A DNA stretch of 45,221 nucleotides, filler included, from Jimgerdemannia flammicorona (lineage: Eukaryota), in NCBI GenBank assembly GCA_003990765.1. It is 2 parts of 2 records of this genome, joined end to end, with 100 filler letters (N's around TTAATTAATTAA, not from the genome) between each part and the next. Parts side by side here need not be neighbours in the genome. Positions count along the whole stretch, not along the records: positions 1 to 22,564 come from RBNJ01001248.1; 1 more part is not named here. One strand, 5' to 3'. The position numbers and the translations under genes were made by a program. Under the pieces are notes generated by a model. That model searched no databases and was not told the DNA's origin. It saw nothing but the letters and a program-made list of their open reading frames with translations. Every line of letters begins with the position of its first letter. The stretch's first letter is position 1. Below, piece after piece: positions 3,135-41,762 of the stretch.

Positions 3135-3210
3135 GATGGTCTCATCTCTGAGGCATCTATTTAAACTCCCATGCTTCAACTGTCTGTATGGTTTTGTACT
3201 GTTCAATTTG

Positions 3211-8818: not shown

Positions 8819-8854
8819 TGTTCAGCTTGAAAGTGAGGGATTCATCTTGAATCA

Positions 8855-8874
8855 CCAGCCAATGAGCACCAAGT
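8855..8874 (-). promoter_or_regulatory. E1 primer-binding site
   Basis: ACTTGGTGCTCATTGGCTGG directly after the 5' LTR, with TGG complementary to tRNA CCA. Primer tRNA not identified. Confidence 0.75.
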
Positions 8875-9333
8875 TGTAACATAGTGGACACTAAGGTGGG
8901 CAAGTATGTCAGATTTCTTTATCTTGAATTCTTGTCTTCTTGACTCTCAGAGTCAGTAGTTCCTTGAGGCCAAATGTGTTTAAGAGGTAATCTCAAAAGT
9001 CCTTTTATTGGTATACTTGTTCTTTTTCTAACACTTTCAATCTGAGGTTTATTCACTCAAAGATACTAGGTTATTTATACAAGTTTGCTAGCTATGAGAT
9101 GGTTACTGAGTTATGTGACTGAGTTATGAGTTATTTAGATAATACATATCTAAAAACTTAGACAATGTCAAAATACTATACTAAATCAGGGTATTCAATT
9201 TGGACAATGTCTAGAAATTTAAACAATGTCGAAATTGGCAACTGCTAACTATAAAACTATACTACTTTGGGAATAGGTGTGATCAAGTGTTTATTCCCTA
9301 TTTCCTTCTTCCTAATTTGGCTATACCATTACA
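8875..9333 (-). repeat. E1 5' LTR (459 bp)
   Basis: Direct repeat of 2665-3119. Differences are mainly C/T and G/A transitions plus a small indel. Confidence 0.95.
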
Positions 9334-10179
9334 ATAGTTATAAAAACTTCTTTTAGAATATAATTCTCAAGTATACTCTTTCTCTAGTTTATTGGATTAT
9401 ATGAGAAAATATATCAATATTGTTATAAGTCTTCTCTACTTTATAGATAATAGTAATTTTATAATATTGTAAAATTAGGATCTAGTGGGTAAGAATTTTA
9501 ATAGAGTATTTATAATAGAATAGCTATTTGAGAGAAATATAATTAGTTATCAGAATAAATCTTTTTTTTAATAAAATAATACTTAAATAAAATAACTACT
9601 CAAATAACTATAAGATATTCTAATTTGATATTACTATAATCTACTTATTATTTATTAATAGCTCAGCTTATATAAGCTATTATATAGTATTATTAATTTA
9701 GTCCTCTTTAGGCAGAAATTGTTCTAAGGCTATTCTTAGAGATATTTATATATAATATAAATAATTTTTGTTAATTATATTATATAAAAACTGATATTAT
9801 AGTTATATAATACTTGAGATCTTAAAGGCTTGTTTTTGTAATTTCTTTTATTTATATATTACTTTCTTTTTAAATAGAGTTCAGATTGAAGCCAAAGTTT
9901 TAGTGAAAATTCTAATAAATCTTCTATAATAGAATATTAGTATTAAGAAGAATAAAACTTCTGTAATAAAACTATATACTAATAGAATTAATATATTGTA
10001 GAAAGTCAAAGATAACTTTTGGCTCTAAGTTCTAAGTTCTTGAGAAAGTGCTGAGTTCTAATTGCCTATTATAGTAGAGTCTAGATATTACTTTTAGATT
10101 TTTATACTAGTAGAGGTACCATACATATATCTTAAGTTTATCAGGCTCAGAATTATTAACAAGTCAAATCTGAGAGTTC
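9334..10179 (-). pseudogene. Heavily decayed gypsy RT C-terminus/RNase H (host of E1, right part)
   Basis: Relics FYYRRFIRIF, LQKQAF and KLEYLIVI*VVILFKYYFIKKRFILITNYISLK*LF. Orientation and domain order are continuous with the integrase relic left of E1. Confidence 0.7.
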
Positions 10180-11000
10180 TGTAATAAGAATACTACTTTA
10201 TTCTTAGGTTTAGAAAAAGTAGAGCTGAGGTTATAATATACTCAATATAGAGAGTATTTATACATATTTGAGGCTATGACTAAATATATATAGTATACTA
10301 GTTATATTCATATATAGTTATACTACTTTAGATAACTATAATTACTAGTTAGAAATTCTATAGAAATTTTTATAGAAATTTTTATTGAAATTTCTATTGA
10401 AATTTTCAGAGACTTGTAAATATATGTAATAATTCATTATATTCTTCTTTTTTTTACTTGAGCCTACTCATTGGACTCAGTATTAAACTCTAAATATTCA
10501 TTAAATTGAAGGACAGTATACTAAACTACTTGAAAAACAATTTTGCTCTATTATTTATTACTCAAGTTGATAGTATTTTTAGGAGATACTCTATAGAGAT
10601 AGTTGAAAACTTGGGATTAGATACAGAAAAGAACATAGAGTCTTTTGGTAACTATATAAGTATAGTTGTTAATGAAAAGACAAACTTGTTATTTGATATC
10701 ACTGAGAGTAGCTTATTGATAGATAAGGTATTCTATCTTATAGTACTTCTTAAGTTTTTATTAATAGCAGAAAGTCTAGAAGTATTAGATTCTTCCAAGA
10801 TATTATTAGGCTTCATTTAGATCAGAGTTTCTAGAGATTTATATATTAACAGATAGTAGTTTAGTAGAATTCCATTAATATTTAATTATTCTAAAAATAG
10901 TGGTAGTAATTTTATTCTTAGTTTATTTTCAATATTATTACTAGGTACTTATATTAAAAGAGATGAATTATCTATATGAAATTGTTTTATGATATTTATA
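10180..11000 (-). repeat. Putative 3' LTR of the chromovirus remnant
   Basis: Follows a purine tract (AAAGAGAAG, 11009-11001), starts TATAAAT (mutated TGT) and ends ...TTATTACA at 10180. Contains a ~12-bp tandem array at ~10350-10410. No second copy in the window to confirm the boundaries. Confidence 0.4.
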
Positions 11001-11084
11001 CTTCTCTTTATCAGAGTTATTTAGAGATATAACTGTCTTTTGGAAATTTCATCAGAATTTTCATTATACTAGATATTTATATCA

Positions 11085-13330
11085 GGTTATTACTTCTTCT
11101 ACATTTGGCAAAAGATTGTCTTCTTTTTCTCAAATAGTATTATACTCAGGGTATCCTTTCCATTTCATAAGATAGTACTGAGTGGGCTTGGTAGTTTATT
11201 CAAATTAGTAATTCTTATAATTCAAAATATAGTCTACTTCATATTTTAGTTATTGATTAATAATTACTAAGTCTGGAGGTGATACAGTTCTCTCTTTGAA
11301 TATATTTGAAATATATAGCTAAAGTTGAAATATATAAAACACTGAGTAAATTCTTTCTAATATTATTAAAAGATCCAACTTATATATAACAGATCTATAT
11401 TTTTTAAGAATCTTGAATAGTTTAATATAGTGAGATCTAAGTTTCTTTTTTGGACCTATATTACTCAGAGTTAGATATTAGGTACTGAGTAATACTTATT
11501 TTCCTTTTTTATAAATGACTTCTTTTATTTTTATCAGTATATACTATTTGTATTCTTTATACTTTTATGAGAATATCTTATGTTTGCTGAATATTGTCTT
11601 ATATAATATCAGTAATTTCTTATACTACTGATACTATAGTTTAGATAGTAATTATAGGAGTTTATGAGTATTTTTCATAATTTAAGCAGAATGGCATTAT
11701 CTTAGTACTTGTACTTAAGCTATTATTATATATAAATTTGGCTAGAATCAGCTTTTCATCTTAATTATTTATAATAGATGCTAAGCATCTACTTAAGAGT
11801 TTGATTAATTCTTTCTGTCTGATCATCTGTTTGCAGATAATATACTATAGATATTTTCAGTTATACTTCTAAATCCTTAAAGAGTGTTTGTCAAAAGTTG
11901 CTTATAAACTTTGTATCTTAGTCTGAGATAATTACTGATGATAGTCTGTAGAGATAGAATACATTGTCAATGATAGCTGTACTATTTCTGATACTATTGC
12001 AGTAGTAGTTATCATAATGAAGTAAGCCTGCTTACTGAGACAATTGATAAAAATAATAATTACATCTCTTCTCTTCTTGGTTTTTAGAAATTGGACAATA
12101 AAGTCCATTCTAATATAATCTCAATTTTGAGTGAGAATTGATAGTAATTGTAGAGTACCAGTTGGTGCCTGGTTACTAGACTTATATCTTTAGCAGATAT
12201 CATAGAATATAATTTAATATCAGATGTTATTTTGAGCTAGTAGAAGTCTTAGATAATATATTGGTATATCTTGTCAAAACTCATATATCTAGCTATAGGT
12301 ATATCATATAGTTCTTGTAAGATTTATAAACAGATAGAAGTATCAGAGATCCAGATTCTTATATTATTAAGATATGTATATATCTATTTTGAATAGATAT
12401 ATTTTTATAGACTTTTTTTATAATATTACAATCTTTTTTGAAAATTTGTTTGGTAATTTCTTATATATTATTATCTTTGATATACTTCTTTTTGACTTCT
12501 TCAAATAGACTGGTGATGATATTGCTAATTACAGTAAGGTTATCTGTCTGAGTACTCCAGAAGAGTATATTGACTACTTTATTTTTGGTTCTAGCAATAT
12601 ATATCAAAGAGTACAAGAATCTGCATCTATCAGACTTATCTTTCTATAAGAATTAGCTATATCTAAATATATTAGAGAGTTTGATGATTAGTCTATAAGG
12701 TGAATATTTTGCTAAGGAGAAAGTATCTCTATGCTTATAGAGATCAGATGATAGTAAAGAGTTTCTTGTCTTATATGATATATGATTAAGATTAATATAT
12801 CAATCAGTATTCTCTTGAGAGTATTTATAACTATAGTGTATTTTCTGTTCATTCTTTTTTAATATTAGCTTCCTTCTTATCAAGACTTATAAATAAAGTA
12901 GTATTTATAAAGAATTCTTGAATAAATCTCCTATAATATCCTACTAATCTATTGAATCCTTATAGAGACTTGAGGGTCTTTGAAATAGACCAATTGCAGA
13001 TTGCTTAGATCTTCTTAGGATCAATGGCAATACTATTTTCTGAGATATATATTCTAGATATTCAATTTTCTTCTTGAGAAAATAGTATTTCTTTCTTTTT
13101 GCTAAGAGCTTATATTCACAGAGTATGTCAAAGACTATTTATAGATATTATTGATAGATGATACTACTTGTACTATATATCAGAATGTCATCCAGATAGA
13201 TCTGAATAAATACTCTAAGGTATTTTCAAAAGATATCATTTATTAGTATTTAGAATATTACTAGTATATTAGTAAGGTCAAATAGTATTATATAGAATTC
13301 ATAATATCTAATTCTTGTTTAAAAGACTGT
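11085..13330 (-). pseudogene. Decayed chromovirus-type Ty3/gypsy pol (RT-RH-IN-chromodomain), 5'-truncated
   Basis: TVF*TRIRYYEF..LFDLTN..F...IYLDDILIYS (RT). C-terminal KYEVDYIL...YYLMKWKGYPEYNTI*EKEDNL (chromodomain, ~11085-11280). Confidence 0.85.
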
Positions 13331-13493
13331 TGTAATGATTGGTTCTAGTTTCTTTAAGAAGAAGTGGCTAAATCTGGAAGTTCTAGTTGGCCTAAAATAG
13401 CTCAAAGAGATACTTAAAGGTTCAAATATTCTTGAAGGATTTCTGGGAGAAAATATTTCAAGGTTTATTCAGACAGAGAATAAGAATATTTAT
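13331..13493 (-). repeat. Left part of another LTR, split by the E2 insertion
   Basis: Begins TGTAAT exactly where the chromovirus RT homology stops, and continues after the E2 TSD at 22134. Confidence 0.55.
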
Positions 13494-14960
13494 TGTAATG
13501 GTGACCTCAGAATGATGACATCAGCACAGGAGATAGTCTTTCCTTGCAAGCTATCAGATTGGAGTATAAGAAGATTATATGGCATATGAGATGAGCAATA
13601 ATGACCTACTGTGAGTCATTGTGACCACAGTATAAGCATCCTGAGGAATATAAAAGAAGGATTAAGAAACTGCAGTAACAGCAATCAATAAGACCCACCA
13701 ATTCTAAAATAGCTCAAAGACTTACTACAAACAAAATACCTACTACTCGCTAAACCTTAAGGTCAAGGAACCACTAAGGTATCTCAGTTGAAGAAAGAAT
13801 ATTCCAAGACATCAGAAGAGCCATGAGGACCCACTCAAAAAGGACTCCTAGTGTCAACCTGAGTACTGATGACCCTTATCACTATATCCTCTACTGCCAT
13901 AAAATGGAAACAAGGATCACCATTGCCACCAAATGCCTCCAAATATAGCAGGAGTATGAAATAGGAAATCTCCTCTGCCAGGAGTTCCCACAGGCCAGTA
14001 CTCAAGAGCTACAAGATGCCATTCCTATGGATATATGTGAAATAAGGATAGCCAAGAAGATCTATCAGATCTTCAGATATATACTATGATCAATCCCTAA
14101 CTTAGAGTATATTAGAGTCTCAGATTTCAGAGACCTATCATCCTACTGTATCAATGTACTAGAAGCCAGAGTGGCTACAGAAGCCCAGTCCACTATCACT
14201 CTCAATAGTGATAAAGTAGAAGACTTCTGGCATCCTATCCTCCAGAACAAATCAGACCAATTCCTGAAAGAATTGATCTCAGTATTCTAAGGCCTAAGCA
14301 TCTAGGTTAGACCTCCCCAAGACCCCACATTTGTTCTCTATTTTGTAGAAGAGAACCTCATAGACTGGAGAGCTCCAGATCTCCTTGTTCTCACTACTGC
14401 TGAATGTGATGACATCATTGGTGATGACATCATCCCATACGACATTGAAGCATATGAAAATGATGAATTCACAGACCTCATCTCCTTCGAAGATATCCTA
14501 ATCTCTGATGATGAGGATGAAGCCCCCATAGTTCTAAACTTTCTGCTCTAAGTTCTTTATTATACTGAATAATGCCAGCACCAGTATTCTGATGTGATAC
14601 TGAATTATATCAGTATCCTGAACCTATACAACCATCAGTACTGACCCTGGAACTTAGTAGTTTTAGTTATTGGAATTTATATTTAGCTTTATATCTTAGC
14701 AACTATTGAATTATATTTTGTATAAATACCCCTCTTATTTCCTCTGAAATAAAGTCAGTTCTATTCAGTTCATGTATACACTTTCTTGCAAGCAATCTAA
14801 GAGATAATAAGAAAGTTTAAAGATAAGAAGTTTGAGGACTATAAGACCTTGGGAAGGCACTCCAATAAGAACTTGCTTATAACAAACTTGAGTTAGTCTA
14901 AGAGATACACCTTGAAGAGAATCTGGCATATTTGAAGGACTCAGTGACCACTACATGACA
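13494..14960 (+). repeat. E2 5' LTR (1467 bp)
   Basis: TGTAATGGTGACC...CTACATGACA. TATAAAA at 13649, TATAAATA at 14721, AATAAA at 14748. Confidence 0.96.
13736..14551 (+). pseudogene. LTR-encoded accessory ORF, copy 2 (start mutated ATG>ATA)
   Basis: 816 nt, colinear with the copies at 152-964 and 20905-21720. Confidence 0.78.
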
Positions 14961-14980
14961 ACTTGGTGCCCATTGGCTGG
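14961..14980 (+). promoter_or_regulatory. E2 primer-binding site
   Basis: ACTTGGTGCCCATTGGCTGG, one mismatch to the E1 PBS. Confidence 0.75.
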
Positions 14981-15016
14981 TGATTCAAGATGAATCCCTC
15001 ACTTTCAAGCTAAAAA

Positions 15017-18000
15017 ATGAACAACCCCCACAACAACTACCCTGACTATAATAGTCACCCCTGCAAGAATTCAAGACAAGATAGAAATATATCCCCCCAC
15101 ATTCTATAGATATGTATACTACTGAAGAGTCAATCCTGACCTTCATTGAAGACATTGAACAATTCACCACCATATGAGCCCTTGGTGTAGATACTCAATT
15201 GGCCCTTCTACCAGTCAGTCTCAGAGGACCTACCAGAGACAAGTTCAATGCAGCCACCATTACTGATGCTGGTACAGCCAAACTTGCCAATATGAAAGCC
15301 TTCCTCAGAACAATATACTATACTGAAGAGATCAAGCAAGCTCTCAAGAATCAACTCAATACTATTTGCCAGGGACTTAGCAAAGATCCCAACTCATTCT
15401 ATACCCAAATCTGCCACCAGATTGTCTTGGCTGGCTATGATGACTGCCTCAAGGAACAAATAGTAGATTCAACCTTCCTCAAAGGAGTTCACCCTGAAAT
15501 TGCCCTAGCAATTCGGTCTACCCCAGCTGTACTGACCCTTGATCAGAAAGTGGTCTTTGCATAGAGATATTGGACTATCAGACACCCTACTGAATACTTA
15601 ATGGAGAAAATAACTGGCATCAAGATGGAGCCATCAAAGCCAACTAGTATCATATCTACCACAGTTGTAAACAGACAACTAACCCCATCTACCTCCAAGA
15701 CAGCCAAAGCTGACCTAGTGGAAGAACTCACCAAGCAGTTCACTGAGATAACTACACACCTTGGTGATGTTGTTAGAGAAGTCTGAAGTACCAACAGGAG
15801 ACCAGTGCAGAGATTTGCAGCTACTACAGAAGAACACAATATCACATACTTCAGATGTAGAGAAGAAGGCCACTATGTAAAGAATTGCATGACTGAAACA
15901 AGATGCAAAGCACAACCAAGCAATGATAGCAGAACCAGAGAACAAACCAATACAGTAGTCATCAAGGAGATTGGTGACACTGATGATGAAGAATACTATG
16001 AGGAGCTTGAATTCTACCCTACTACTGAAGGTACCTGAATCCAGTCCAAGCCCTATGACAAGAAGAGCAACAGCAAGCCAGTTGGAAGACCAAAGAAGAC
16101 CTCAGCTGTCACTATTCAAAGCAAGACCCAACCTGAAGAGATTGATCAAGACATAGAGTTAGATAAAGCTGCCTGCTAAATCATTGAAGGTACTACTCCA
16201 GTCTCAGGAGAAAGTGAAAGCTAGAAGGAACAGAAGCTGCATAAGACCAAAATCCACCAGTATGATATCTACAAGAATCTCAAGGAATAGAAGGTCAATG
16301 CTACTTTTGGATAGCTAGCTGAAGTCCCTGCCTTCAGACAACAGTTGAGAGTAGGACTGGCAACTACTGTCAAGAATCAAGAGTACAAGATTGTAGAAGC
16401 TCACAATGCACAGAAAGAATTCAAGAACTTAGGTGAAGAATCCAAAGACTAGTGCAAGATATCAGCCTATACTCCATATCAGATTGAAGACTATATCTTT
16501 GATGCCATCATTGATACTGGTGCTGAAGAATGCCTCATGAGCAAGAAGACAATTGACTGCCTAGGCTGGGACATTGAAGAGTCCACCAAGATGGTCTATA
16601 TCACAGCAGATAGTATATGAGCTACCCCTCTTGGCAAAATCCAAGAAGTCCCCATCAAGATAGGAGGAGCTACCATCCCAGTAGATGTGATTGTCATAAG
16701 TACCACCAACTATGACATCCTCATTGGTAACCAATAGCTTCATAAGGCCAAGGCTATCATTGACCTCAATGCCTAGAAGATGTAGATTAACTACAGAGAA
16801 AGAAAGGTACAAGTCTCTATCAATTTTTATAAAGGAGTCCTACCAGACATGGAGGAAGGAGATGAAGAGGACACAGAGGTCTTCATTCACTCAGTGAACA
16901 AGAACAAGAATAAGATACCCAAGCTCACAGATGAGTAGTGGTACAACAAGATCATTGATGAATATGTCCCTCAAGGAAGATGCCCCCATGGTACTAGGAT
17001 GTACTGCTCTGAACACCTGAATGACTGCTGGTCCTATATCAGTAAAGTCAGGAAAATCCACCAACAGAAATATGAGTAAGAAGTCACTGAAGCAAAAAGG
17101 AAAGCCAAAGAAGATGACCAGCCCCCAGAGCTTCAGGCTGACAGTGATGATGAGGAGGAATAAGAATCAGACATCACCCTTAAGGTCAAAAAGTTTCACC
17201 CTGAAGCCAAGATCCCAGAATACAAGACTGAAGGAGTCATAGGAATAGACCTTACCAGCATTCAAGATACTACTCTCAAACCACAGATCACTACCCTACT
17301 AGGCACTGGAATTGGAGTCAAGCTACCAGAGAACTATGCCAGAATTATCAAGACTAGGAGCAGTCTGGTCAAAAGTGAAATCTCAGTTGAAGAAGGAGTA
17401 ATTGACCCTGATTACACTGGTGAGATCTTCCTCATAGTCAGGAATCACAACTCCACCACCCCATTTGAAGTCAAGAAGCATGACAGGATTGGCCAGATGC
17501 TGGTCTATGAAATCAAGAAGCCCAAGATCATAGAAGCCATTGAACTCATTAAGACCAAGAGAAGAGAACAAGGCTTTGGATCTACTGGAAGAGGAGCCTA
17601 TGCCACTACTAAGATTACCAAACTTGAGTATAAGAAAGACAAGGACCAGAATAAGCACACATATACTATTGGAGAAAACTTTCCCCTGGAAGAACAACTT
17701 CTCAAGATCTTACATCAGAATGAAGGAGTACTTGCTATAGACTTCAGGGATATCTACAATCAAGAACCTAAGTACTACTATAAAGTTGATACTGGTGATA
17801 CCAAGCCCATCTACCAGAAAGCCAGACCCATACCACCTGCCTACAGAGAATGGCTGCAAGCAGAACTCAAGGAAATGGAAGAAGCTGGAATTATCAAGCA
17901 AGCTATTAGCCCCTGGGCCTCACCCATTGTCCTTGCCCTGAAGAAAAGAAGCAAGCCTGGAGAGTTTGCACCAAGACTCCATATTGACTACAGGAGGCTC

Positions 18001-20298
18001 ACTGTCATCACCAAGAAGGATAGGCAGCCCTTACCAAATATTCAAGAAATCCTTACCACTCTTAGAAGTGAAGCCAAATACTACACCACCTTGGATCTGT
18101 TCTCAGACTTCTATCAGATTGGTCTACTCAAGATGCTAGTGAGAAATCAGCCTTCATCATACCTGATGCCACCTATATCTATCTGCAAATGCCATTTGGA
18201 ATATGCAATACCCCAGTAAGTTTTCAGCAAATGATGAACAGAGTCTTTAGCAATGAGATTGGAAAATAGCTCTTTGTCTATATTGATGATGTGATCATCT
18301 TCAGCAATACTGCATGGGAATATATCAATCACATACAGCTAGCCCTCAAGAAGCTCAAGTAGTATGGCCTCTACATCAAGCCCAAGAAATACAAGTTTGC
18401 AGCTCAAGAAATTGCCTATCTAGGACACCTCATCAACCAGACTGGAATCCACACAGACCCCATGAAGATTGAGGCTGTTGCAGCCTACCCAAGACCCAGA
18501 ACAACTACAGAAGTCCATGCCTTCCTTGGACTAGCCAGCTACTACAGAAGGTTCATCAAAGGATACTCCAATATTGCAGTACCCATCTACAAGCTACTGA
18601 AGAAGGAAACCAAATTTGAATGGACCAAAGAGCACTAAGAAACCTTCAATGAACTCAAGATCAGATTGACCCAAGCACCTATCCTCAGAAGACCAGACTG
18701 GAACCTAGAATTCATCCTGTAGACAGACATGAGTGCTATAGGACTTAGAGCAGTCCTAGCTCAGAAGAAAGATGGATATGAATATGTCATCTCCTATATA
18801 AGCCGAGGTATCTATGGAGCAGAACAGAACTATGAGTCATACAAGCTTGAATACTTAACAGTAGTTTGGACAGTAGATAAGTTCCATTACTATCTAATCA
18901 GGAAACACTTCACCATTCAAACAGACCACTCTGCTCTTGTCTGGCTATTCCACACTCTGAACCCCAAAGAAATATATATCAGATGGATCTACAGGCTGCA
19001 AGAGTATGACTGTACTGTCAAGCACTGCTCAGGAAGAACCAATACCAATGCTGATGCACTCTCAAGGACACCCTGAAACACCCCCAATAAGACCATTCAA
19101 CATGAATAAGGAGCTATACTATGAATTAATCAGCTACCTTGGGCAGCAAAAGATGCCTAACCACCTTAAACCCTGGACAATCACCATCATCAACTGGACT
19201 TGGAAACAGTTTGAACTAAACAACACTATACTCAGAAAAGGAGGAAAGCTAGTAATATCCAAATACAAGAAGTATCAAGTAATGAAGAAAGTACATGAGC
19301 AAGGATACCTAGAAGGAATCAATACATATGACAAGGCAAGAAGAACCATGTAGTGGCTCAAGATGGAAGAAGACCTGCATCAATTTGTCAAAGGGTGTGA
19401 CAAGTGCCAAAAACAGAAACAAGATCAATAAGACCAGGCACCCAGGTCATCAATAATTGAGCCTATTCTCTTCCACTACATCACAATGGATATCATTGGG
19501 CCACTACCAGTAACACTATCAGGAAACCACTATATTATAGTTATTGTAGACCTCTTCACCAAATGGATAGAGGCAGGAGCATTATAAGAAACCAATGCCC
19601 TCTCTATAGCTGACTTCCTGAACTGAGAAATCATCTGCTGCTACAAGACACCAAAGCAAATCTCAACAGACTGCAGCACAGAATTTATCAATGGATTCCA
19701 TGAGATAATGTATCAGAAATACAAGATCCAGCACATCAAGACCACTATATACCACCCTCAAGGAAATGGACAGACAGAGAGAACCAACAAGACTCTCAAG
19801 AACATTCTAGCAAAGATCTCAGAGACATATGAGAATTGGGATAACTATATTCCAACTGCCCTCTCTGTCCTATGAGATATACAGTTACAGAGCACACACT
19901 TTACCCCAAGGAAGCTGCTTTTTGGAGAAGAAGATTCTGATGGAACCTCAGCCACAAATCTAGACCTAACTTAGAGATGAGTTGATGTAGAAATCCAGAG
20001 ACTACACCAAATTAGGAAGAAGGCTGAAGATTAAAACATCAAGTCACAAGTGCTGACAAGGAAGAATGTGGAAAAGAATCACAAGACCCTAGAATCTATC
20101 CAAATTAGAGAAAAGGTTCTACTATATTGAAATATGGTAGAAGCCTCATAATCATGAAAACTGGAGCCCAAATGGGAAGGACCCTTCTATATGTAAGATA
20201 TCAAGAGAACTATCTTCTGGCTTAGAAAAATCTCAGGGACCATACTGCCTACCATAGTACATAGGAACAGACTCAAGAAGTACCACAAACCTATATAA
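15017..20298 (+). pseudogene. E2 gag-pol polyprotein (Gag, zinc knuckle, PR, dUTPase, RT, RNase H, IN)
   Basis: YFRCREEGHYVKNC; IIDTGA; GVIDPDYTGEI/GFGSTG; SPWASPIVL, YIDD; QTDHSAL, NADALSR; KWEGPF; TAA at 20296-20298. Gag (15199) and RT (17497) ORF pieces are in the same frame. Confidence 0.93.
17173..17589 (+). other. dUTPase domain within E2 pol
   Basis: LKVKKFHPEAKIP..GIDL..KTRSS..GVIDPDYTGEI..RIGQ..REQGFGSTG. Confidence 0.93.
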
Positions 20299-20323
20299 GA
20301 GAAGCAAAATGTGATGACTGCCC

Positions 20324-20662
20324 ATGAGGTTCTAGTCTACAAATTGTAACAGCATATTCTGTAACCAGCAGGCTATCTGTCTAGACCATTCTCTAAGGGA
20401 TACAGTACTGGCAACTACTCATCTGTGAGACTTTTGAAGTCAGAGGAGTTCAAACCATCAACTGATTAGTCAAGATCAGAATCAGGCTCTTGCTCTATAT
20501 GAAGAGAGCAACCCTTCACCATCATGCCAAAATACAAAGAGAAGACACCAGCCCATAAATACCACTTTTCGACCCCTTGCCAGAGGTTATAGGATCAGCA
20601 AATTTTTCAGGACTGGACTAATGAATAAGGATGCTCAAGAAGATCCTTATTCAGGAGAAAGA
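20324..20662 (+). pseudogene. Possible decayed extra ORF between E2 pol and the 3' LTR
   Basis: 113 codons from ATG 20324 (MRF*STNCNSIFCNQQAICLDH...). Its three stops (TAG, TGA, TGA) all revert by T>C. Confidence 0.35.
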
Positions 20663-22129
20663 TGTAACGGTGACCTCAGAATGATGACATCAGCACAGGA
20701 GACAGTCTTTTCTTACAAGCTACCAGATCGGAGCACAAGAAGATTATATAGCATATGAGATGAGCAATGATGACCCACTGTGAGTCATTGTGACCAAAGT
20801 GCAAGCATCCTGAGAAATATAAAAGAAGAATCAAGGAACCCTAGTAACAGCAATCAATAAGACCCACCAATCCCAAAATAGCTCAAAGACTTACTATAAA
20901 CAAAATGCCTGCTGCTCACCAAACCTCAAGGTCAAGAAACCACCAAGGTATCTCAGTTGAAAAAAGGATGTTCTAAGACATCAGAAGAGCCATGAGGACC
21001 TGCTCAAGAAGAACTCCTAGTGTCAACCTAGGTACTAGTGACCCTTATTACTATATTCTCTACTGCTGTGAAATGGAAACAAGGATCACTATTGCCACTG
21101 AATGCCTCCAAATGTGACAGGAGTATGAAATAGGAAACCTCCTCTACTGGGAGTTCCCACAGGCTAGTACTTAAGAGCTACAAGATGCCACTCTTATGGA
21201 TATATATGAAATGAGGACAGCTAAGAAGATCCATCAGATCTTCAGGTATGCACCATAGTTGATCCCCAACTTGGAGTATGTTAGAGTCTCAGATTTCAGA
21301 GATCTGTCATCCTGCCATATCAATGTACTAGAAGCCAGAGTGGCTACAGAAGCCCAGTCCACTATCACTCTCAATAGTGATGAAGTAGAAGACTTCTGGC
21401 ATCCTATCCTCTAGGACAACCCAGACCAATTCCTACAAGGATTGATCTCAGTATTCAAAGGCCCAAGTATCTAGGTTAGACCTCTCCAAGACCCCACATT
21501 TGTTTCCTATTTTGTGGAAGAGAACCTCATAGACTGGAGAGCTCCAGATCTCCTTATTCTCTCTGTCACCAAACATGATGATGTCATTGATGATGACATC
21601 ATCCCATGCAACATCAAAGTATATGAAAATGATGAATTCACAGACCTCATCTTCTTTGAAGATATCCTGACCTCTGATGATAAGGATGAAGCCCCCATGG
21701 TCCTGAACTTTCTGCTCTAAGTTCTTTGTTATACTGAATAATGCTAGTACTGGTATTCTGATGTAATACTGAATTATACCAATATCCTGAACCTGTACAA
21801 CCATCAGTATCGACCCTGGAACTTAGTAGTTTTAGTTATTGGAATTTATATTTAGCTTTATATCTTAGTAACCATTGAATTATATTTTGTATAAATACCC
21901 CTCTTATTTCCTCTGAAATAAAGTCAGTTCTATCCAGTTTACTTATACACTTCCTTACAAGCAATCTAAGAGATAACAAGAAAGTTTAAAGATAAGAAGT
22001 TTGAGGACTATAAGACCTTAGAAAGGCACTCTAATAAGAACTTACTTATAAAAAACTTGGGTTAGTCTAAGAGATATACCTTGAAGAGAATCTGGTATAT
22101 TTGAAGGACTCAGTGACTACTATGTGACA
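20663..22129 (+). repeat. E2 3' LTR (1467 bp)
   Basis: TGTAACGGTGACC...TATGTGACA, preceded by the PPT TATTCAGGAGAAAGA. Confidence 0.96.
20905..21720 (+). pseudogene. LTR-encoded accessory ORF, copy 3 (271 aa)
   Basis: ATG 20905 to TAA 21720 in one frame (816 nt). Internal stops are transition-derived. Confidence 0.8.
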
Positions 22130-22133
22130 TTAT

Positions 22134-22729: not shown

Positions 22730-25700
22730 CTATCCAATCCCCCTAGGGGGGCCCCTCCCCCCTACTTCTTCTTGATGAAACACTACTCTATCAAAAACAA
22801 TCCCCACTCACCCACTACTCTGTTCACAGATCTCTTCCACCAGATAGTGACATTGTCCACTCTGGGAACTCCAACCAACCCACCACCCAGCCAGCAAATC
22901 TCCCATCAACCACTCTCATTTTAACAACTTCTCTTGTATATCCATCTACTGCCTCTTCTCAAAAACAAAGAGCCAATGTCCAGCCAGCCCTACCTATATA
23001 GCTAAAACCCACTCTACAGTGAGCATCCATTACTCACACCACCTACTAACTGAGATTTCAAATCCTCCCAGTGACCTCTCTCTCCATCTGGCCTCCTCTC
23101 TACACTCAACCAGTCCCCTACTGCTATCCAAAAGTCCCCCAGAATCTCACACTCTCTTAGCCAATGTTCTGGCATCTGTATAAGACCTCCAACTTGCCCT
23201 ACATTATAATACTCCTCACAATCTAATCAACCACCATCCACTAGATATCCAGTATGAAATTCAATATGATATTCCTCTGCAGCATCTGCCACTACACCAC
23301 CCAGAACTTGGGAGGAAGCCACCTCTATACCTCAGCACTCTATGACTAGACTCCTGTCCAGTCCCACTCCTCATCTATCCTCACTACCTGCCAAATACTT
23401 GGCTATAAATCCTGACCAAGTCCCTGCTGATACTCCACTCCTTTACAAATATCAAACTCAGTAAGTAGAATACCCCCTAGAAGCAGTCTGTCCCATTGCC
23501 ATATAGCTGGACCTCACAGTATCTCTCCCTCATTGCTTCACCAGCACAGGTCTATTCAGTGTGCTCCATCCACCATCTCCCACCAGAAGCCCTTATACCA
23601 TGCCATCAGCTTCCATCCAGACTCACCAGAGATAGCAAATCTCCCAAAGACTCTTGAGAGGAGAATCTCATCTCTCACACCTTCTGCATCAGTGGCACCC
23701 AGCTCTCTCTCTGTAATTCAACAGCCCTTTTTAACCACCAAGCTCACAGGCAATGCAGTCTCTTAGGAAAATCCACTAGGCCTAGCTCTTCCTGAACTAC
23801 CAGTGTTGCAAGAGTGTCCCAACTGATCTGGGACCACCTCTCTGCCCAAATCCAATCTTTAGCCAGTTTCATCAGTCTTTTCACCACTCAAGCTAGAAAG
23901 TTCAAATAGTAAGCAACATACCACAGCTTGGGGAACTAGTAGACATTCAGGATTGATACCCAGCCTACTAGGGAGATATAATGACCTCCCCAACCTCTAA
24001 GAGCCTCTCTCCAAATAGCCACTCTCCTCTTCCACCACTCTCTTGGTAAGACTGAACCATATACAGAGAGAAAGATGTCCAAATACCTCACTGCCTCTCC
24101 TGTAGAGACAATTGTTCCAATGATATTCCCTCCCACCAGCCTATTCCCCAGCACCATTGTCTCACACTTATGCTAGTTGAGTTTCACCCCAGAGTATACC
24201 TCATACCATTCCACTGTCTCCTTAAGTACCTCAACATCTACCACTGAGCCAAGTCCAACTACTATATTATCTGCAAAGGCTCCCCACCTTCCACACCACA
24301 CTATATACAGAGAGCTCTGCTACCTTCTGTCATATCCTATCCATTAGAGGTTCTAATGAAAGAGCATAGAGGATAGGAGACAATGGATCCCCTTAAGGAA
24401 CTTCTCTTCCCAAGGAGAATGCTAGATCCCAGTAATCATTATACATCAGTACTGCCCTACTCCCCTTCAACATATTCAACATAGAAGCTCAAAATCTTGG
24501 GAGAATACCAATTCTATCTAGCACCTTACTCAGCCACACCTGCTGAATGCAGTCATAGGTCTTTTTCTGATCCAAAAAGACCAGTCTTCCATTCAATTCA
24601 CAAGCTTGTACTCCTTCAATAATGCCATAAACCCAGGCAGTCCTATCTCTGATAAGCCTGCCTCTAATAAAGCCCCACTGCTCCTTACCCAGCACCTGTT
24701 GGGCAACCTTCTGTAGCCTTACAACAATCACCTTAGTCACTATCTTCCTGTCTATATCTAGGAGCATGATTAGTCTCCAGTTCTTCCAATCCTCCCTCCT
24801 TCTCTTGTCTTTATACAACAAGACCACCAGCCCTAAGTCCTGCTCTCTAACCCACCTACCATTCAGAAGAATATGGTCACAGAGGGCTGCTATTTCTCCT
24901 AACATTCCAGGGACCTCTGCCATCTTCTTTCAGAAGTCTCAAGGTAACTCATCCTCTCCTGGTGCTATCCTAAGCTTAGTTGCTGCCAGAACTCTCTGAA
25001 CCTCTTTCTTTTAGACTGGTAGTATCAAGTCTCCAAGACCCTCTATCTGTAGCAGTTCCCACTTCTCCAGCATGTTGCCAATTACCTTCTCATCTGTACC
25101 CCCTTCCTTCTCACTTCACAGACCCCTCTACCTTTTCTTCAGTTCTGTTGTATGTCATATACTATTTCCCCCTCAGTATCAAGGACCCCATCTCAATGAT
25201 GTCATACCCTCCTAGCTTAGAGGAGTCTTGACAAGTACCTCATAGGCTACTCTCCCTCCTCAAGCCCCTACCACCTTAGTCTAGCAGCCATTTCTTTCAA
25301 ATGAATCTCCTCCTCCTCTCTCAATATCTGTTATAGCTCCACTATCTCCAATTTTGCTCACTCCAACCTCCAATCATCCACCTCTTCAGAAGAAATCAAA
25401 TTAGCCCATTCCATCTGCAATCTAATCAGCCTATTAGAAGCACACCTTACTCTCTTCCTTCTCTGCCTCCCAGTCTCTCTATCAGCTCTTCCTAAATAAA
25501 CCCTTGCTGCCTCCTTCAATCTCATCCACTGGACATCCACAGATGAGCTCTCATATATCTAGCTAGTAATTTTCACCTGTATGACCTCTACCTATGAATC
25601 TCACAACACCTTCTCAGCCAGCAGAGAGGAGTTAAGGTACTAATATCTGAGTCTATCTCTACTCCCCCTAAACTGCTCCTGCCCTAATAGCCCCTAGTGA

Positions 25701-26365
25701 TTAGACCATAGGTACTACTCTACCTCTAGAGTTCTCTAAATATCTACATCCCAGCATTCAGCTGTCAGAATCCAATCAATTCTCATACTCAGTCTATTCA
25801 CCCAGTATATATAGACTTTCTTTTCACCCCATCATATTCTGCTCTATCCCCTAAGGAGCTAAGGTTCTCTACCTCCTCCTATACATCCAGACTACCACTC
25901 CTCCTGCCTGCACTCCTTCCTCCCTCAGTTCTATCTAACTGTGGATTCTACACTATATTAAAGTCACCTTCCAGAACATCTACTCCTTCCTCTAAGAGAA
26001 CTTCCTCCTCCAAAAAATCTCTAATCTACCCAATCCACTCACCCCTAGCCATAGGGCAGTAGTAGGAGCCAACCCTCACTGGTTCTTACTCAGGTCAATA
26101 CCATTCTCCCCAGACCAAACAGTTACCCCAGCTCCTGACTCCACCCAAATCTCCTCTCCCCCTCCTCACCAGAATTGCCACTTTGCTAATCCAAGCAGTA
26201 GCTTCTCTCCATTCTCTTGTCCACTTTACCCAATTCTCTTCATCCTTATACTGTACATTCTGCATCAGCCTCCAATCTCTTAAGCCAGGTAAAAATGTTC
26301 TTATGCTGTCCAGGTTCCCTTAACCCATTCACATTCAGAGAGAAAATGTTAGTTATACTGTTCAT
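22730..26365 (-). pseudogene. LINE ORF2 (APE endonuclease, RT, C-terminal CCHC region)
   Basis: MNSITNIFSLNVNGL; DFN; SNH (SDH); KNWRLIMLL; DQKKTYD; GDPLSP; FADN; ends PPRGIG*. Confidence 0.9.
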
Positions 26366-26396
26366 AAGAAATAATATTAAATATAAGTCTCATCCT

Positions 26397-28308
26397 CTAT
26401 AAGTCTGCATTCAACTCCTCCTATACTAAGTCTAAGTTATATTCAGCAGCTAGTACCTTCTCTTCTGCTGCCCATGCCTCCAGCCTAACCAGAAGTTCAG
26501 CTATCTCTCTATTCTCTTTTTTCTCAAAGTCCTCACAATACTCCAGACATACCTTCTGCCAGAGTTGCAAACCATGATGCTCTGCCCAACAGTAGACAGC
26601 TTGCTCACCAGCAATGACTGCCAGCTCAGTCTCTCTTTTCTTATCAATCTCATAACCCTCTTCTTCTAGGAAAATTGCAAGTATCTCTGCCTTCAGTACC
26701 TCCACTCCATCTCTATACAGAATCTGTATCCAATACTCCTCACTCATCACTTGTAGGTCCACTTCCCCCAACCCCTCAGCTATAAAGTTATCTATTATCT
26801 TGCTCATCCACAGCAGGTTTCCCACCTCCTTCCCTCCAGGCATCTCTGGCCTTCCTGTATCCAGCATTATAGTATCTGCCCCTACACTGGCAGTCTCATC
26901 CCATCTCTCTTCTGGGACATCCACCAGCTCATCCTTGCCAACCACCATTATCTGTCCTCCTTTTGTTATATATATCAGAAACCCCAAAGTGTACCCACTG
27001 AGTGCCCCTCATCAGCTCATCCTCTGCTACCTGACCCCTCACAGCTGGACTCTGTCTGACCAGTGGGGGAGTATTATCCATAACTGGTTCCCAGACTTTG
27101 AACATACCATCAGCAAAAGAGTCCTTATGAGGTATCTTCCCAGCCCATTCCAGGCTCTTCTTCATATGTATCTCCTTCTCCCTTACTAGCCCAGACACTC
27201 ACCTCTATATCCTCAGACTTCTCAGTGCTCCTAGCCTTTATCTTTGTCTCTCCTTCCATGCTTGCTAGCAGCTCTCTCTGCCTCCAGTACTCTTGAGCCC
27301 TCTCTCACTACCTCTTGTCAGTGCAAATACATATGCTTCCCTTCAATAATCTCCAGATGTGTCAACTTCACATACAACTTTCAGACCTTTATCCTCTGCT
27401 CAACAGCACCACTCAACTCCTCTAGAGCCTCCAACAAGTTCTCCTCCTCCTCTTCACTCCCTTTTACCCTTGATACCTTACAGACAAAAGCCCCCCACAT
27501 CAACACCAAAGGCCAGTCACTCATCTTCCCCATGGCCTCTCTCCCAGTCAGTCTAATTCTGACATTCACATCATCTATCCTGAAGATAGTTCCCTCCTAT
27601 ATCTGGAAACTAATATCAACCACATTGCCATACTCTGCTATCACCTTCTCCACCCTCCTCCTAGTCTCATCCTTTGTTACTGTAGGCACTCTCAAGTACC
27701 ACACCATAGAGACCACCATCTCTCCTATGGTCACTTCAGACTTCAAAGCCTCCTCCAATGGGCCCACCTCCTCGAAGCCTACCTCCACCCCTTCCAACTC
27801 CTTCAGAAACTTCACTGAGGCTGCTCTAGCCACCTGCTCTGATATAAGCCCCAGAACCATCCTCATCATCACTACCAAGCCCCTGAAATATAAGATCACT
27901 ATGAACTCTGAGATTGACTTCTTGAGTAATAGTACTACCACTAGCTCTGTCATACCATCAGCTAGGTCTCTCTTCCACTTTGGGCCCATCTGCCCAGTTC
28001 TCTCATCAATAGTTATATCTGGATTTTTTTTCCAGATTCCCAGTCATACTGCCATCAGCAGTCCTGCCTCTACTCCTACTAGCTACTCCACTAGCTCTAC
28101 CTCTCACTAGCTAAGGTCTAGCACTTCCAGCTTCTCCAACCTTCTGCTTCCCCTTCCCTCCTGCCTGCCTACTCTGAGTTTCTACTGGCCAACCTCCAGC
28201 CCACAGCATATCTGCAAAGCTCCTCCCCTTCTGCTCTCTGGCCTCACCACCAGTGCTGCTTTCACTGTCTAAGCTGCCCTGCCCACTCAAGCCACTGAAA
28301 GACCCCAT
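26397..28308 (-). pseudogene. LINE ORF1
   Basis: Homologous to 39788-41731. RRM-like segment VPTVTK...EYGNVVDISFQI. Confidence 0.8.
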
Positions 28309-28459
28309 CCCAAGCCTATACCCTTATCTGACATTCTGCTAGTTAAAGGCCCCAGGTCTATCCAACCCAGTCACACATTTGCTTACTTGCTGGTTACTAT
28401 TACCTTAGTACCTTTCTCCAATAAATAACTTGAAAGTGTGTTGTAAAAGTGTGTGTAAC

Positions 28460-31400
28460 ATAAATTATAGTAGAGAAAGCCTGTGACCTCAGTGGTATAC
28501 TATCCCAAATCAAATAAGTCTACTCTCTGAACCAAAGAAGAAGATTCTCAAAATATAAAAAAAGCAATAAGAAGAAAAGTACAAAGTATCAAATAAGAGA
28601 CTTACTACAAAATATCTACTATCTACTAAATAGTAAGATCAAAAAGTCATCTAGATCCATCAGTTCAAGAATAGATATTTACTAATATTAAGAGAGTTAT
28701 GAGATTGTATATAAGAAAGACCCCAAGTCTGAACTTCTATATAAGAGATCTCTACTACTATACTCTCAACTGCTGTGAAATAGAGATAAGAATCACTACT
28801 GCTACTGAGTATCTTTAGATATAACAAGGATATGAAAAGATATATCATCTCTACTAAGAATTTTTATAAGCCAGCTCTCAAGAAATTGTAGATGCTACTT
28901 GTATAGACAGATATAAACAGAAATTAGCCAAAAGAGTTCATCAGATATTTAGATATATACTCTGGGCTATTCCTAATCTGAAATATATTAAAGTCTCTGA
29001 TATTTAAAAACTAATAAGCCACTGTACAGATCACTCTGAAGAAATAGTTGCAGAAAAAGCTCAATCTACTATTACAGTTAAGAGTAAGGAGATTTAAGAC
29101 CTTTGGAAAGGATAATTCAAATCAATTTATCTATAGTTTGATTGTATTATTTCAAGGCCCTCTCTTGAGAGTCTACTTTTTCCAGAATTTCACAGATATT
29201 TCCTACTTCATAGATAACAATACTATTGAATAGAGACCTTAAGAGTAGAATAACTATATACCTTTTAATAATATCAATGACATCATCTCTCAAAATAACT
29301 TAGAGAATAATAGTGACTTACTTATTTTGCTAGAAGATGATATTAACTACTTTTCTCACTTCCAGAACCTTCTCACTGACTTCAGCACAATTGTGAAGAA
29401 TGCAAAAAATGATTTGGTCAGACCCCCTGAAGAGAAGAAGGATGAGAATGATATAATCTCAGTTATGCTAAATTTTAAGTTAAATGAGAATAGCTCTATT
29501 AGTCAAATTGAGTAAGTTAGTTAGTTAGATAAATAGTAATTGAGTATTAACTAGCTCAATTTATCATAAATATAAAATTAGCCTTATTCAGTTAGTTAGT
29601 CACCTGAATTCCAAAACTATACTAATTAGTATCTTCTAGTAATTATGATAACTAATTATCTAGTCTTATATATAGTCTAAAAACTATTAAATATCCTCTA
29701 ATCTGTAGTGAATAAACCTCAGTCAATTAGTTTGTAATATTAACTTAAGTTTTAAAAGATAAGAAAGTTGAGTGTAAGAACTTTGAAAAAAGACTCCAAG
29801 AGTTGAAGAATTACTCTTACTACCATAAAACTCAAGATATAAGATTAAGACTATTTCAAGATATAAGTCAGTTAGTTAAAATTACTGTAAAATTAGATAT
29901 AAGTCTCAGGAAATCTAGCCAAGGATATCAGAATTGTCAACTTGCCTAGAAACTCAAAAATAATATATAAACTAAATAGCCAGTTATGTGATCAATGACT
30001 TAAGATATATGAACTTCAACTTGACATAAATCCAAATAAATTAAATAGTAGTTGATATGAATATTGAGTCAGAAATATGGTTAAGAAATAAATAGGAGAT
30101 AGTATATAAATAATTAAGAGATACATTGAGCCATATAGAAGCAATAAGAGATATAAATCATGTACTACATTTTAGAGACTTGACTGAGAAAGTTTTCTAA
30201 AGACTTAATTATTTGGCTCAAGAACTCAATAACTATCTATAGTAGAGAATTTAGGAGAAACTAGCCAGCAGTAAGACCAGGGCCAACAATAGCCCACTTT
30301 AGAAAAAGAAGCTCATACTATTATCAGAACAGCCCTCACTCTGTTTAGAACCAGTAGCCAGAAAACTGAATTAGAAAAAAGAAGTGATACAGATTATAGT
30401 TTGATCTTAAAGGAAAGAAAATAACTCAGAGGACAACCTGAGTCTATCTAGATCCAAGACCCAGAACATGAAGAAGATTTTCCTGAAGAATACTAGATCC
30501 TAATCTATAGAAGAGATTTGGGCAGAAGTGACTATATTACTACTGTCATCACTTAAGCTACTTTACTAGATTAAGTATATTTTGAAATATCTGAAGGAGA
30601 AAAAGACTACTATTTCTACCTTTTAGAATAAGAGAAAGATGATAATTGAAAAAGTCAACCAGATTATCCAAGAGATGAATTCAACCTTTATCACTACTTA
30701 GACAGTAATATAGACCCTTGGTAAGATGAACAGAACTCCACTGCTTCACAACAGCAAGGGGCAGATAAACTGAAAATTAGCTATATTAGTTCTATTTTAA
30801 TTACCAGAACCTCAGTACTCTGGTTCTTTATATTCCAATACTATCTATAAGAGACAAGAAGCTTTAAATCTCTCAGTACCTCAGTACTTAGTGACCACTA
30901 TCACCTAATTAGAGAACCACTATCATCAAGAACCCTTATCCCAGCTTTAATTAGAAGGGTCAGACTCCTTATACTCTCACCAAGATACTATCTTTTGTCA
31001 GTACTAGTAGTTCATCAAGTACCTCTACTATCTCCAGGTTATCAAGAAACTCTACCCCAGAATCAGACTCAGATAGTGAAGATGAATCAAACATAAGCTA
31101 TCTTTAGAAATTCCATAGTACAGACAGTAAATATATCAAGGAATTCTTTAGAGAAATTGAAGTACAAGTAGTAGCTAAGTAGTGAGATGCTCAGAGAAAG
31201 CTCAGAATCATGGAATCACTCCTGAAAGATCCTGTTCTACAGAAGTACAACTAAGTAAAGCAAGTTGGAGGAGATATCTATAAAGTAGAACATATTAACA
31301 ACATTTGAGCAAATAGAGACCATATAGATAGATATCATATTTATAAGACCTGGCTCTATACTTAGTTCAATAGTCTTAAGCATTAATAGAAAATATAAGA

Positions 31401-33040: not shown

Positions 33041-33826
33041 GGTGGAGATGAGGTAGAGTGTCAGTAGGGTCTTGGCCAGGACCTTTAGTCAAGCGGTTGG
33101 CAGGCAGTTGGGATCAGTGAGGAGTGGAACTGGGCAGGTATCTGGTCTTGGAGTGCTGAGGTGCGGTGGTGGCTTCCCCCCAAGTTCTGGGTGGTATGGT
33201 GGCAAATGCTGCGGAGGAATGTCATGCTGAATTTCTGTACTGGGCATCTGGTAGATGGTGGCTGTTTTGATTGTAAGGAGTGTTACAATGTAGGACAAGC
33301 TGGGGGTTTGGTGCAGATGCCAGAACATTGGCTGGGAGAGTGTGAGGTTTTGGGGGACCTTTGGGTTGAAATAGAGAATAGACTGGGTATGGAGCGTAGG
33401 CCAGCAGGTGAAGGGAATTGCTGGGAGGACTTGAGATCTAGGCTGGTGGGGGGGGGTGGGTGATAGTTGGCTCACTATTGGGTAGGTGTTAGCAATTTGG
33501 GTGGGATTGGCGGGATATTGGCTATTTGTATTTGAGGAGGGGTGGTAGATAAGTCTGCTGGAGAAAGTTTTAAGGTGGGAGGAGTTGTTGGGGGATCTGA
33601 TGACTGGATGGTGGGTAGGTTGGAGTCCTTCAGAAGACCAGTGGTGAGGTTTGGTGGTGAAGATATGTGAACAGAGTGGTGGGAGGGTGGGGATTATATT
33701 CGATAAAGTAGTGTTTCGTCGAGAAGAGGTAGGGGAGAGGGGCCCCCCTAGGGGGATTGGATAGGGGGTGGGTTTACTGTACTTATATAAGATAGATGGG
33801 CATAATAAAGGAAGAGTCCAAGTGAC

Positions 33827-33883
<57 letters not shown>
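33041..33883 (+). mobile_element. 5'-truncated LINE copy with intact poly(A) tail
   Basis: Matches 44650-45221 and 22665-23450. C-terminal CFDCKEC...EHWLGEC motif, AATAAA at 33804, pure A54 at 33830-33883. Confidence 0.93.
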
Positions 33884-33885
<2 letters not shown>

Positions 33886-41731: not shown

Positions 41732-41762
41732 AGGATGAGTTTGATATATAATAATATTTCTT

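Follow-up and report, generated by a model that had tools for sequence, protein, structure and literature searches.

A protein gene inside the long terminal repeat of a Ty3/gypsy-type retrotransposon lineage in Jimgerdemannia flammicorona

The locus described here, from the genome of Jimgerdemannia flammicorona (NCBI GenBank assembly GCA_003990765.1), raises the question of whether a reading frame of about 270 codons found within a long terminal repeat (LTR) belonging to a retrotransposon, denoted here as E2, is a protein gene and, if so, where in the LTR it lies and what its product might do. The DNA analyzed, referred to as the window, is a stretch of 45,221 nucleotides (nt) joined from two parts, the first of which (positions 1 to 22,564) comes from RBNJ01001248.1. 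The answer is that it is a true protein gene, belonging to a dUTPase-bearing Ty3/gypsy-type lineage; since the 1467-nt LTR contains it whole, each element has it at both ends and each solo LTR has a copy as well. The explanation that best accounts for the observations as a whole is a gene of the LTR, probably placed in its unique 3' region (U3), possibly with its own promoter and possibly encoding a nuclear regulator, a reading to which we assign a probability of roughly 0.62.

The reading frame and its relatives

In a self-comparison of the window, 13494-14960 aligned with 20663-22129 as a direct repeat of 1467 nt at a gap-free identity of 89.4%, the pair being 148 transitions and 8 transversions apart with 0 gap columns. 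E2 is a Ty3/gypsy-type (Metaviridae-like) LTR retrotransposon, and its repeats qualify as genuine LTRs, because they run from TG to CA, they are accompanied by a primer binding site (PBS), a polypurine tract (PPT) and a 4-bp target site duplication, and they enclose a pol region in which the integrase comes last. The pol order, obtained from Pfam and tblastn matches, is protease (PR), dUTPase, reverse transcriptase (RT), RNase H (RH) and integrase (INT), with the pol tail ending at ~20296. The dUTPase is found between protease and RT in E2 (17203-17589, + strand) and also in a sister element of the window, E1 (5829-6683, - strand), with Pfam E values of 1e-24 and 7e-23, respectively. The features of E2 and of the open reading frame (ORF) in its LTRs are as follows.

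13494-14960 (+): 5' LTR of E2, 1467 nt, TG...CA
20663-22129 (+): 3' LTR of E2; TTAT target site duplication at 13490-13493 and 22130-22133
1-1203 (-): third E2-family LTR, inverted, its 3' part beyond the window edge
14964-14980 (+): primer binding site (TGG...), 3 nt past the 5' LTR; E1 has this sequence after its own 5' LTR too
20653-20662 (+): polypurine tract AGGAGAAAGA, abutting the 3' LTR and homologous to the E1 PPT
14961-20662 (+): decayed gag-pol, with protease at ~16213-17133, dUTPase at 17203-17589, RT/RNase H to 19073 and integrase at 19321-19758
13736-14551 (+): LTR ORF, 5' LTR copy, 272 codons, 6 internal stops, start decayed to ATA
20905-21720 (+): LTR ORF, 3' LTR copy, 272 codons, 6 internal stops, ATG retained
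152-964 (-): LTR ORF, inverted copy, 271 codons, 3 internal stops, the least decayed

The third E2-family LTR was recognized from a minus-strand alignment running from 1206 to 76 and extending to base 4 in the self-comparison and, as no E2 PPT stands beside it, it must be either a 5' LTR or a solo LTR. The CpG observed/expected ratio is 0.06 across the whole window, and this near-absence, together with the dominance of transitions between the LTRs, indicates that E2 has been decaying by cytosine deamination since its insertion. TG/CA doublets at former CpG sites make up many of the differences between the repeat copies.

The ORF occupies LTR positions 243-1058. The initial annotation had proposed that all three E2 LTRs carry the same frame, that the net indel between copies preserves it and that its stops derive from transitions, and these claims held on closer reading, with the addition that the 152-964 copy lies on the minus strand. 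Within the frame, the inverted copy differs from the other two by indels of +6, +3, +3 and -15 nt (4/4 multiples of three), and indels of 16 and 1 nt appear just beyond the stop codon of the ORF. As for the stops, 15 internal ones are distributed over the three copies at 11 codon columns, and all 15 are a single transition away from a sense codon. In 10 of the 11 columns, that sense codon (CAA, CAG or TGG) is present in another copy of the window; the remaining one, codon 118, is a stop in all three copies (TGA, TGA and TAG), both kinds being one transition from TGG, and it is W in the intact homologues labeled P0004-P0007. Read in any of its other five frames, the interval contains 9-28 stops per copy. 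All window copies of the ORF are, consequently, dead, killed by C->T/G->A decay. A short region of repeated motifs lies just past the ORF stop (14552-14650, 21721-21820 and 4-150); its copy number varies between insertions, with extra units in the inverted copy, and its cover by metagenome contigs is thinner than that of the rest of the LTR. An antisense frame of 124 amino acids (aa) at 21448-21822 was considered and set aside as chance, given that it has no Pfam match and that the antisense frames there hold 10-28 stops per copy.

Intact relatives of the encoded protein were found in public databases. A word-seeded search of 5.8 billion proteins yielded 5 homologues among 421 candidates, including P0005, which is intact, 271 aa long and 69% identical at 100% cover, and P0004, of 247 aa and 83% identity. 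An exhaustive profile search of 1.84 billion representatives gave six proteins at E<=0.001, among them P0010 and P0011, which align end to end at ~40% identity, and the more distant P0012 and P0013, while a second profile search contributed one further fragment. The intact relatives measure 247-342 aa, at identities that go from 83% down to about 25-40%. In the family alignment, conserved blocks alternate with variable stretches, in-frame indels are found within an acidic tail, and the start MP... is kept in P0005, P0010 and P0011. None of the 6 relatives among the 1.84 billion representatives carries a cellular annotation or a Pfam domain, and no fused or longer form of the protein was found among 7848 longer candidates, the latter being weak evidence.

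A lineage gene under selection

When the family profile was compared with the six-frame translation of the window, it matched five places: the three E2 copies, a fourth at 28639-29473 and a region of E1 (3205-3618).

28639-29473 (+): fourth, diverged ORF copy, full-length, ~45% aa identity, one frameshift near 29105, many stops
2665-9334 (-): sister element E1, Ty3/gypsy-type, LTRs at 2665-3120 and 8875-9334 (456-460 nt)
3205-3657 (-): distant homologue in E1, starting at the pol end and stopping ~85 nt before the PPT and the 3' LTR (3120)

The fourth copy sits in a diverged LTR-like stretch, ~28452-29890, that matches E2 LTR positions 190-886 and 1320-1362, and it represents a second LTR family with the same arrangement of an ORF within the LTR. 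The situation in E1 is different, since its LTRs are short and the homologue stands outside them. E1 has the same PBS, PPT and PR-dUTPase-RT-RH-INT order as E2, and it is less decayed, with ORFs of up to 317 aa. Its homologue is a 148-codon ORF with its own ATG that matches the N-terminal/core half of the family (profile positions 9-145), a relationship found both by hhalign (probability 93.9%, E=1.6e-07, 67 columns) and by hmmsearch against the window (E=3.7e-08). Identity between E1 and E2 is 57-62% in pol and about 20-25% in the accessory protein.

E1 and E2 share a homologous PPT and homologous first LTR bases, with the ORF on opposite sides of them; the gene therefore occupies opposite sides of a shared landmark in the two elements. 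With a distant homologue retained in E1 outside the LTR, directly after the integrase, the gene is an old accessory module of the lineage and not a recent capture. The gene thus belongs to the element lineage, its position within the LTR being one of two arrangements. In E2, the place corresponding to the E1 accessory ORF, between the pol end and the PPT, is a spacer of ~357 nt (20297-20652, + strand), in which neither recognizable coding content nor anything matching the accessory-protein profile was found.

The effect of selection was assessed by a codon-position test over 267 codons, comparing the differences within an element (LTR versus LTR) with those between insertions. The LTR-versus-LTR differences arose after insertion, and they consequently serve as an internal control. 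Within the element, the differences were distributed over the three codon positions as 36/29/34 (p=0.67), whereas between insertions the distribution was 17/10/34 (p=0.0006; contingency p=0.024), and the ratio of synonymous to nonsynonymous codons was 25:60 within the element versus 19:23 between insertions. These patterns point to a frame that was under purifying selection while the family spread. The proposal that the LTR carries an accessory gene and not a chance frame was in this way sustained by three lines of evidence: intact homologues at 69-83% identity, a third-position excess seen only between insertions and the presence of the gene in a second, diverged LTR family.

Several observations count against this conclusion. 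The transversions between insertions are nonsynonymous in 10 of 10 cases, though mostly conservative; transversions alone carry no signal of selection, and for the fourth copy versus E2 their distribution is 24/14/23 (p=0.22), that of the transitions being uneven (19/25/45, p=0.002). Moreover, the contigs of the intact homologues span only 600-1625 nt, and the LTR location is known from the window copies alone. Scans with the family alignment for DNA loci of the homologues gave 410 pattern matches in metagenome contigs, 112 in viral contigs and 137 in genome contigs, of which 0 were confirmed, and a search of viral contigs with the E2 dUTPase-RT segment gave 15 pattern matches, likewise with 0 confirmed. 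When the E1 and E2 dUTPase-RT alignment was compared with metagenome contigs, 79 of the 80 relatives retained out of 220 matched only the dUTPase part and look like ordinary dUTPases; one among these 80, L001, matched dUTPase plus RT at 32%, and its contig ends before any 3' region.

Product, expression and competing explanations

The protein had been described in the initial annotation as having a basic N-terminus, a helical-looking core and an acidic tail ending in (V/I)LNFLL, and this outline proved accurate. P0005 has a net charge of +8 over its 60 N-terminal residues and of -14 over its 60 C-terminal ones, and two hydrophobic-acidic motifs are conserved in the tail, namely DLISF.. and, at the very end, ..EAP.(I/V)LNFLL. 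An AlphaFold2 model built with 14 sequences, including distant members, gave a mean predicted local distance difference test score (pLDDT) of 66.5 and a predicted template modeling score (pTM) of 0.57, and it shows a helical core, predicted with confidence, followed by a small and less confident strand region and a tail that is disordered from residue 217. The means of ten-residue blocks are mostly 73-95 over residues 11-160, with 58-67 at 31-60, and fall below 50 from residue 217. Against the use of this model, it must be mentioned that AlphaFold2 with 7 sequences performed poorly (pLDDT 36.8), and that the 14-sequence alignment is still shallow. In seven family members no 19-mer exceeds a Kyte-Doolittle hydropathy of 1.05, and the absence of a hydrophobic segment sets the protein apart from env-like ORF3 products and from type II transmembrane proteins. 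The product is predicted to be soluble, with an arginine-rich, basic head preceding a compact domain of helices and a disordered, acidic tail, a layout that many transcription activators have.

The check that might have linked the protein to an already described retrotransposon domain or fold, in Pfam and with Foldseek, gave no such match. Pfam contained 0 families matching the three window copies at E<=1, and the sole match of the 14 family members at E<=5 was ATG5_HBR, at noise level and in 2 of the 14. A sequence-profile search of the PDB returned 0 matches at E<=10, and Foldseek searches of the PDB and BFVD with the full-length model, itself moderately confident, gave nothing at E<=0.001. 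The ESM Atlas offered no lead either (best feature score 0.83, own model pLDDT 0.35, structure rows at TM<=0.33). In a wide fold search, about 20 of the 50 best rows, covering residues ~60-155, were helix-turn-helix or other DNA-binding or transcription proteins, including ParB/KorB/SopB/VirB DNA-binding domains, TetR, DeoR, XRE, sigma factors and CENP-B; all of them are in the chance range, and they are given as a lead only.

By analogy with activators of this layout, it can be tentatively suggested that the product is a soluble nuclear regulator acting in trans on the LTR promoter, either as a transactivator or as a counter-silencing factor. In such a scheme, the novel helical core may bind nucleic acid, and the acidic disordered tail would contribute hydrophobic-acidic motifs of the activation-domain kind. 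It is also conceivable, although doubtful, that this real accessory protein does another job, such as integration targeting or chromatin tethering, nucleic-acid chaperoning, or RNA export or packaging. The tethering variant, in which the protein may stand in for a chromodomain that the lineage lacks, draws on the finding that the read-through translations after the integrase (E2 19300-20702 and E1 3098-4400) contain no Chromo match at E<=0.01, both regions being decayed enough for a weak remnant to be missed; the chromodomain at the integrase C-terminus that defines chromoviruses was accordingly seen in neither element. In addition, the E1 homologue begins exactly at the pol end, and an arginine-rich N-terminus would also suit RNA binding. 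The stand-alone start (MP...) of P0005, P0010 and P0011 argues, however, against a pol fusion. Nothing else speaks directly against these other jobs, and the acidic tail would fit activation or protein-recruitment motifs equally well.

A second matter is the position of the gene with respect to the promoter of the LTR, for which the following elements are relevant.

14721-14728 and 14748-14753 (+): TATAAATA and AATAAA, the presumed core promoter and presumed poly(A) signal, at the border between U3 and the repeated region (R)
13649-13656 (+): TATA-like box TATAAAAG, 87 nt upstream of the ORF start, candidate ORF promoter

The pair formed by TATAAATA and AATAAA is spaced by 27 nt in E2, is found 26 nt apart in the short E1 LTR (2869-2838, minus strand), and has a counterpart in the matching region of the fourth LTR, with TATATATA at 29667 and AATAAA at 29711. 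Since it is conserved across LTRs, the pair is likely to represent the core promoter and the poly(A) signal. That the ORF is upstream of this pair, as previously noted, is plainly so, and its location in U3, deduced from the conservation of the pair, is probable. Full-length RNA would then carry the gene once, at its 3' end: the main transcript would start near AATAAA, so that it is only in the 3' LTR that the poly(A) signal would come into play.

The gene might in addition be transcribed from the TATA-like box 87 nt before its ATG, with the transcript ending at the AATAAA of the LTR, a proposal that we consider to have somewhat less than even odds. The box is kept in 3/3 E2 copies, and it is present as ATATAAAA at ~28554 in the fourth LTR. 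In the 3' LTR copy, the only one with an unobstructed ATG, no ATG lies between the box and the ORF start, and the start codon would thus be the first to be encountered. A short mRNA of ~1.1 kb, running from the box through the ORF to AATAAA, could then be made from either LTR or from a solo LTR. An objection is that the least decayed copy (152-964) has an out-of-frame ATG 5 nt before its start, although this ATG is probably a product of decay.

The same box, conserved and not followed by an ATG before the start in the 3' LTR copy, could also be taken as the start of the main transcript (13649). The ORF would then lie in an R of ~1.1 kb, or in the 5' leader, and the genomic RNA would have it as its first cistron, as an 'ORF0' preceding gag. 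There is some precedent, in that ORFs upstream of gag occur in plant Ty3/gypsy elements, such as Retrosat2 ORF0, according to the accessible part of PMC3485330. This alternative is nevertheless improbable. The short E1 LTR has the TATAAATA/AATAAA pair but neither the ORF nor the upstream box, which makes the pair the likelier main promoter; furthermore, the AATAAA at 14748 would need to be ignored on the first passage, and gag translation would require reinitiation after a 272-codon ORF.

Much less probable still is that the frame is a passenger, that is, a fragment of a host gene captured into the LTR, conserved only because of its short age and with no role in the element. Captured gene fragments are common in the LTRs of plant elements, and the protein has no recognizable retroelement domain. 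However, the gene is present in at least three diverged element families of the window (E2 itself, the family of the fourth LTR with 45% aa identity and, with about 20-25%, E1), and it shows the third-position excess in the differences between insertions. The scarcity of its relatives, all six without cellular annotation or Pfam domain, and, weakly, the lack of fused or longer forms argue in the same direction. Finally, the notion of a chance open frame in a transition-decayed repeat, for which the stops in every window copy and two poor single structure predictions (pLDDT 36.8 and the Atlas model at 0.35) could be invoked, is refuted by the intact 247-342-aa relatives at 30-83% identity with their conserved blocks and in-frame indels, by the 9-28 stops of the other frames and by the codon-position bias.

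Occurrence, implications and known systems

Sequences related to E2 are not restricted to this genome assembly. Ten public runs from seven studies share words with E2, 8 of the 10 being labeled as soil metagenome. In four runs from four studies, the contigs aligned to E2 at 80% likeness or more numbered 6631, 1183, 606 and 364, and they covered 30/30 bins of E2 in three runs and 29/30 in the fourth. Where these contigs depart from the window, C in place of T and G in place of A predominate; those of one run, X1, show C for a window T 301 times and G for a window A 199 times, the reverse changes amounting to 106 and 77, which fits the E2 copy of the window being a decayed member of a large family. 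In two runs, a loose end of sequence was read as encoding the FPATAERDDV stretch of P0004; it contains four CpGs, and less decayed copies therefore exist. Several of the soil metagenome runs contain the family in abundance, and intact copies should therefore be obtainable.

Taken to its full extent, the proposal would make the LTR a self-contained cassette, composed of a TATA box, a 271-codon ORF and a poly(A) signal, in which every LTR, solo ones included, acts as an independent source of a Tas-like or counter-silencing regulator whose fold has no solved relative. Although this complete version is unlikely, its consequences deserve mention. If the gene is expressed from the LTR, solo LTRs would be protein-coding units and not inert scars, and the dosage of the factor would scale with the number of LTRs. 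Dead elements and solo LTRs may feed the few live copies in what would amount to family-level complementation, a phenomenon that, to our knowledge, has not been described for LTR retrotransposons. The upstream promoter may also gate the main one by transcriptional interference. The lineage itself provides a natural comparison for what the LTR position buys, since the gene is inside the LTR in E2 and the fourth family and after the integrase in E1.

The rest of the window contains other repeats and remnants.

23036-28371 (-), 39725-45221 (+) and a fragment at 33043-33950 (+): LINE-like non-LTR retrotransposon, three copies 75-85% alike, with apurinic-type endonuclease and RT
39034-39321 (-): decayed dUTPase remnant
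9564-9994 and 12858-13100 (-): RT remnants

The sense strand of the LINE-like copies is extremely G-rich and C-poor, with a GC skew of about +0.4 to +0.5 (-0.4 to -0.5 in the inverted copy), and AT-rich stretches of 22-26% GC lie between the elements (~1000-3000, 9000-13000 and 35000-38000).

A few vertebrate retroviruses are known from textbooks for the oddity of carrying genes inside their LTRs, the examples being sag of mouse mammary tumor virus (MMTV) and the Nef and Tas/Bet genes that overlap U3. MMTV sag is a superantigen gene located in U3, and its product is a type II membrane glycoprotein. The E2 gene resembles sag in being a sense-strand ORF of about 300 codons wholly inside the LTR and upstream of the core promoter (in E2, the presumed one), hence present in both LTRs; it differs in that its product has neither a hydrophobic segment nor a Pfam match, and in that its host is a gypsy-type element without env and not a retrovirus. 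Accessory genes at the 3' end that overlap U3 include those for Tas/Bel1 and Bet of foamy viruses and for Nef of primate lentiviruses. Tas/Bel1 itself has ~300 aa, binds DNA, possesses an acidic C-terminal activation domain and is expressed from its own internal promoter. Tas is encoded at the genome's 3' end by a gene that extends into the LTR, and its architecture and logic are the same as those proposed for the E2 protein. However, the Tas, Bet and Nef genes only overlap the LTR, while the E2 gene is entirely inside it, and no likeness to Bel/Tas or Nef was detected in Pfam, in the PDB by sequence (E<=10) or among BFVD and PDB folds (E<=0.001, with the moderately confident model).

Among retrotransposons, the closest parallels are extra ORFs located outside the LTRs. 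Plant Ty3/gypsy elements have additional ORFs (aORFs), such as ORF0 of Retrosat2, RIRE3 and RIRE8, which the accessible parts of PMC3485330 and PMC7264820 place either in the interval separating the 5' LTR from gag or in the one separating pol from the 3' LTR, that of Retrosat2 being upstream of gag (PMC3485330). As far as these texts go, the aORFs share with the E2 gene the condition of coding for an orphan protein that lacks homologues beyond the element lineage and evolves much faster than pol, but they lie outside the LTRs; a term search of the accessible text of the plant aORF review (PMC7264820) for 'in the LTR', 'inside the LTR', 'within the LTR' and 'within LTR' retrieved none of these phrases. 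The LTR retrotransposons of bdelloid rotifers, as presented in the available portion of PMC5408684, combine a PR-dUTPase-RT-RH-IN pol with a family-specific extra ORF3 located 3' of pol, the products of which are env-like, transmembrane, coiled-coil, GDSL esterase or DEDDy exonuclease proteins. The pol order and the extra ORF 3' of pol match the arrangement of E1, the only one of the elements compared here in which the homologue has that position, but the family protein, by Pfam, matches none of those described products, it is not env-like and, in E2, it is inside the LTR. As for the dUTPase, elements of the basidiomycete Postia placenta carry it between protease and RT (PMC2864245, in the part available), and dUTPase domains are enriched among the retroviral (transposable element-related) Pfam families of the Entomophthora muscae genome according to the accessible part of a preprint.

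The expectation that LTR genes are not a standard part of such elements is in line with the full-text literature searched, subscription journals being outside this coverage, which places extra ORFs only outside the LTRs and in which no description of a conserved protein gene wholly inside a Ty3/gypsy-type LTR came up. All these comparisons can be integrated in a simple statement: a trick known from retroviruses is found here in a gypsy-type retrotransposon lineage, where it is performed with a protein that has no recognizable relative.

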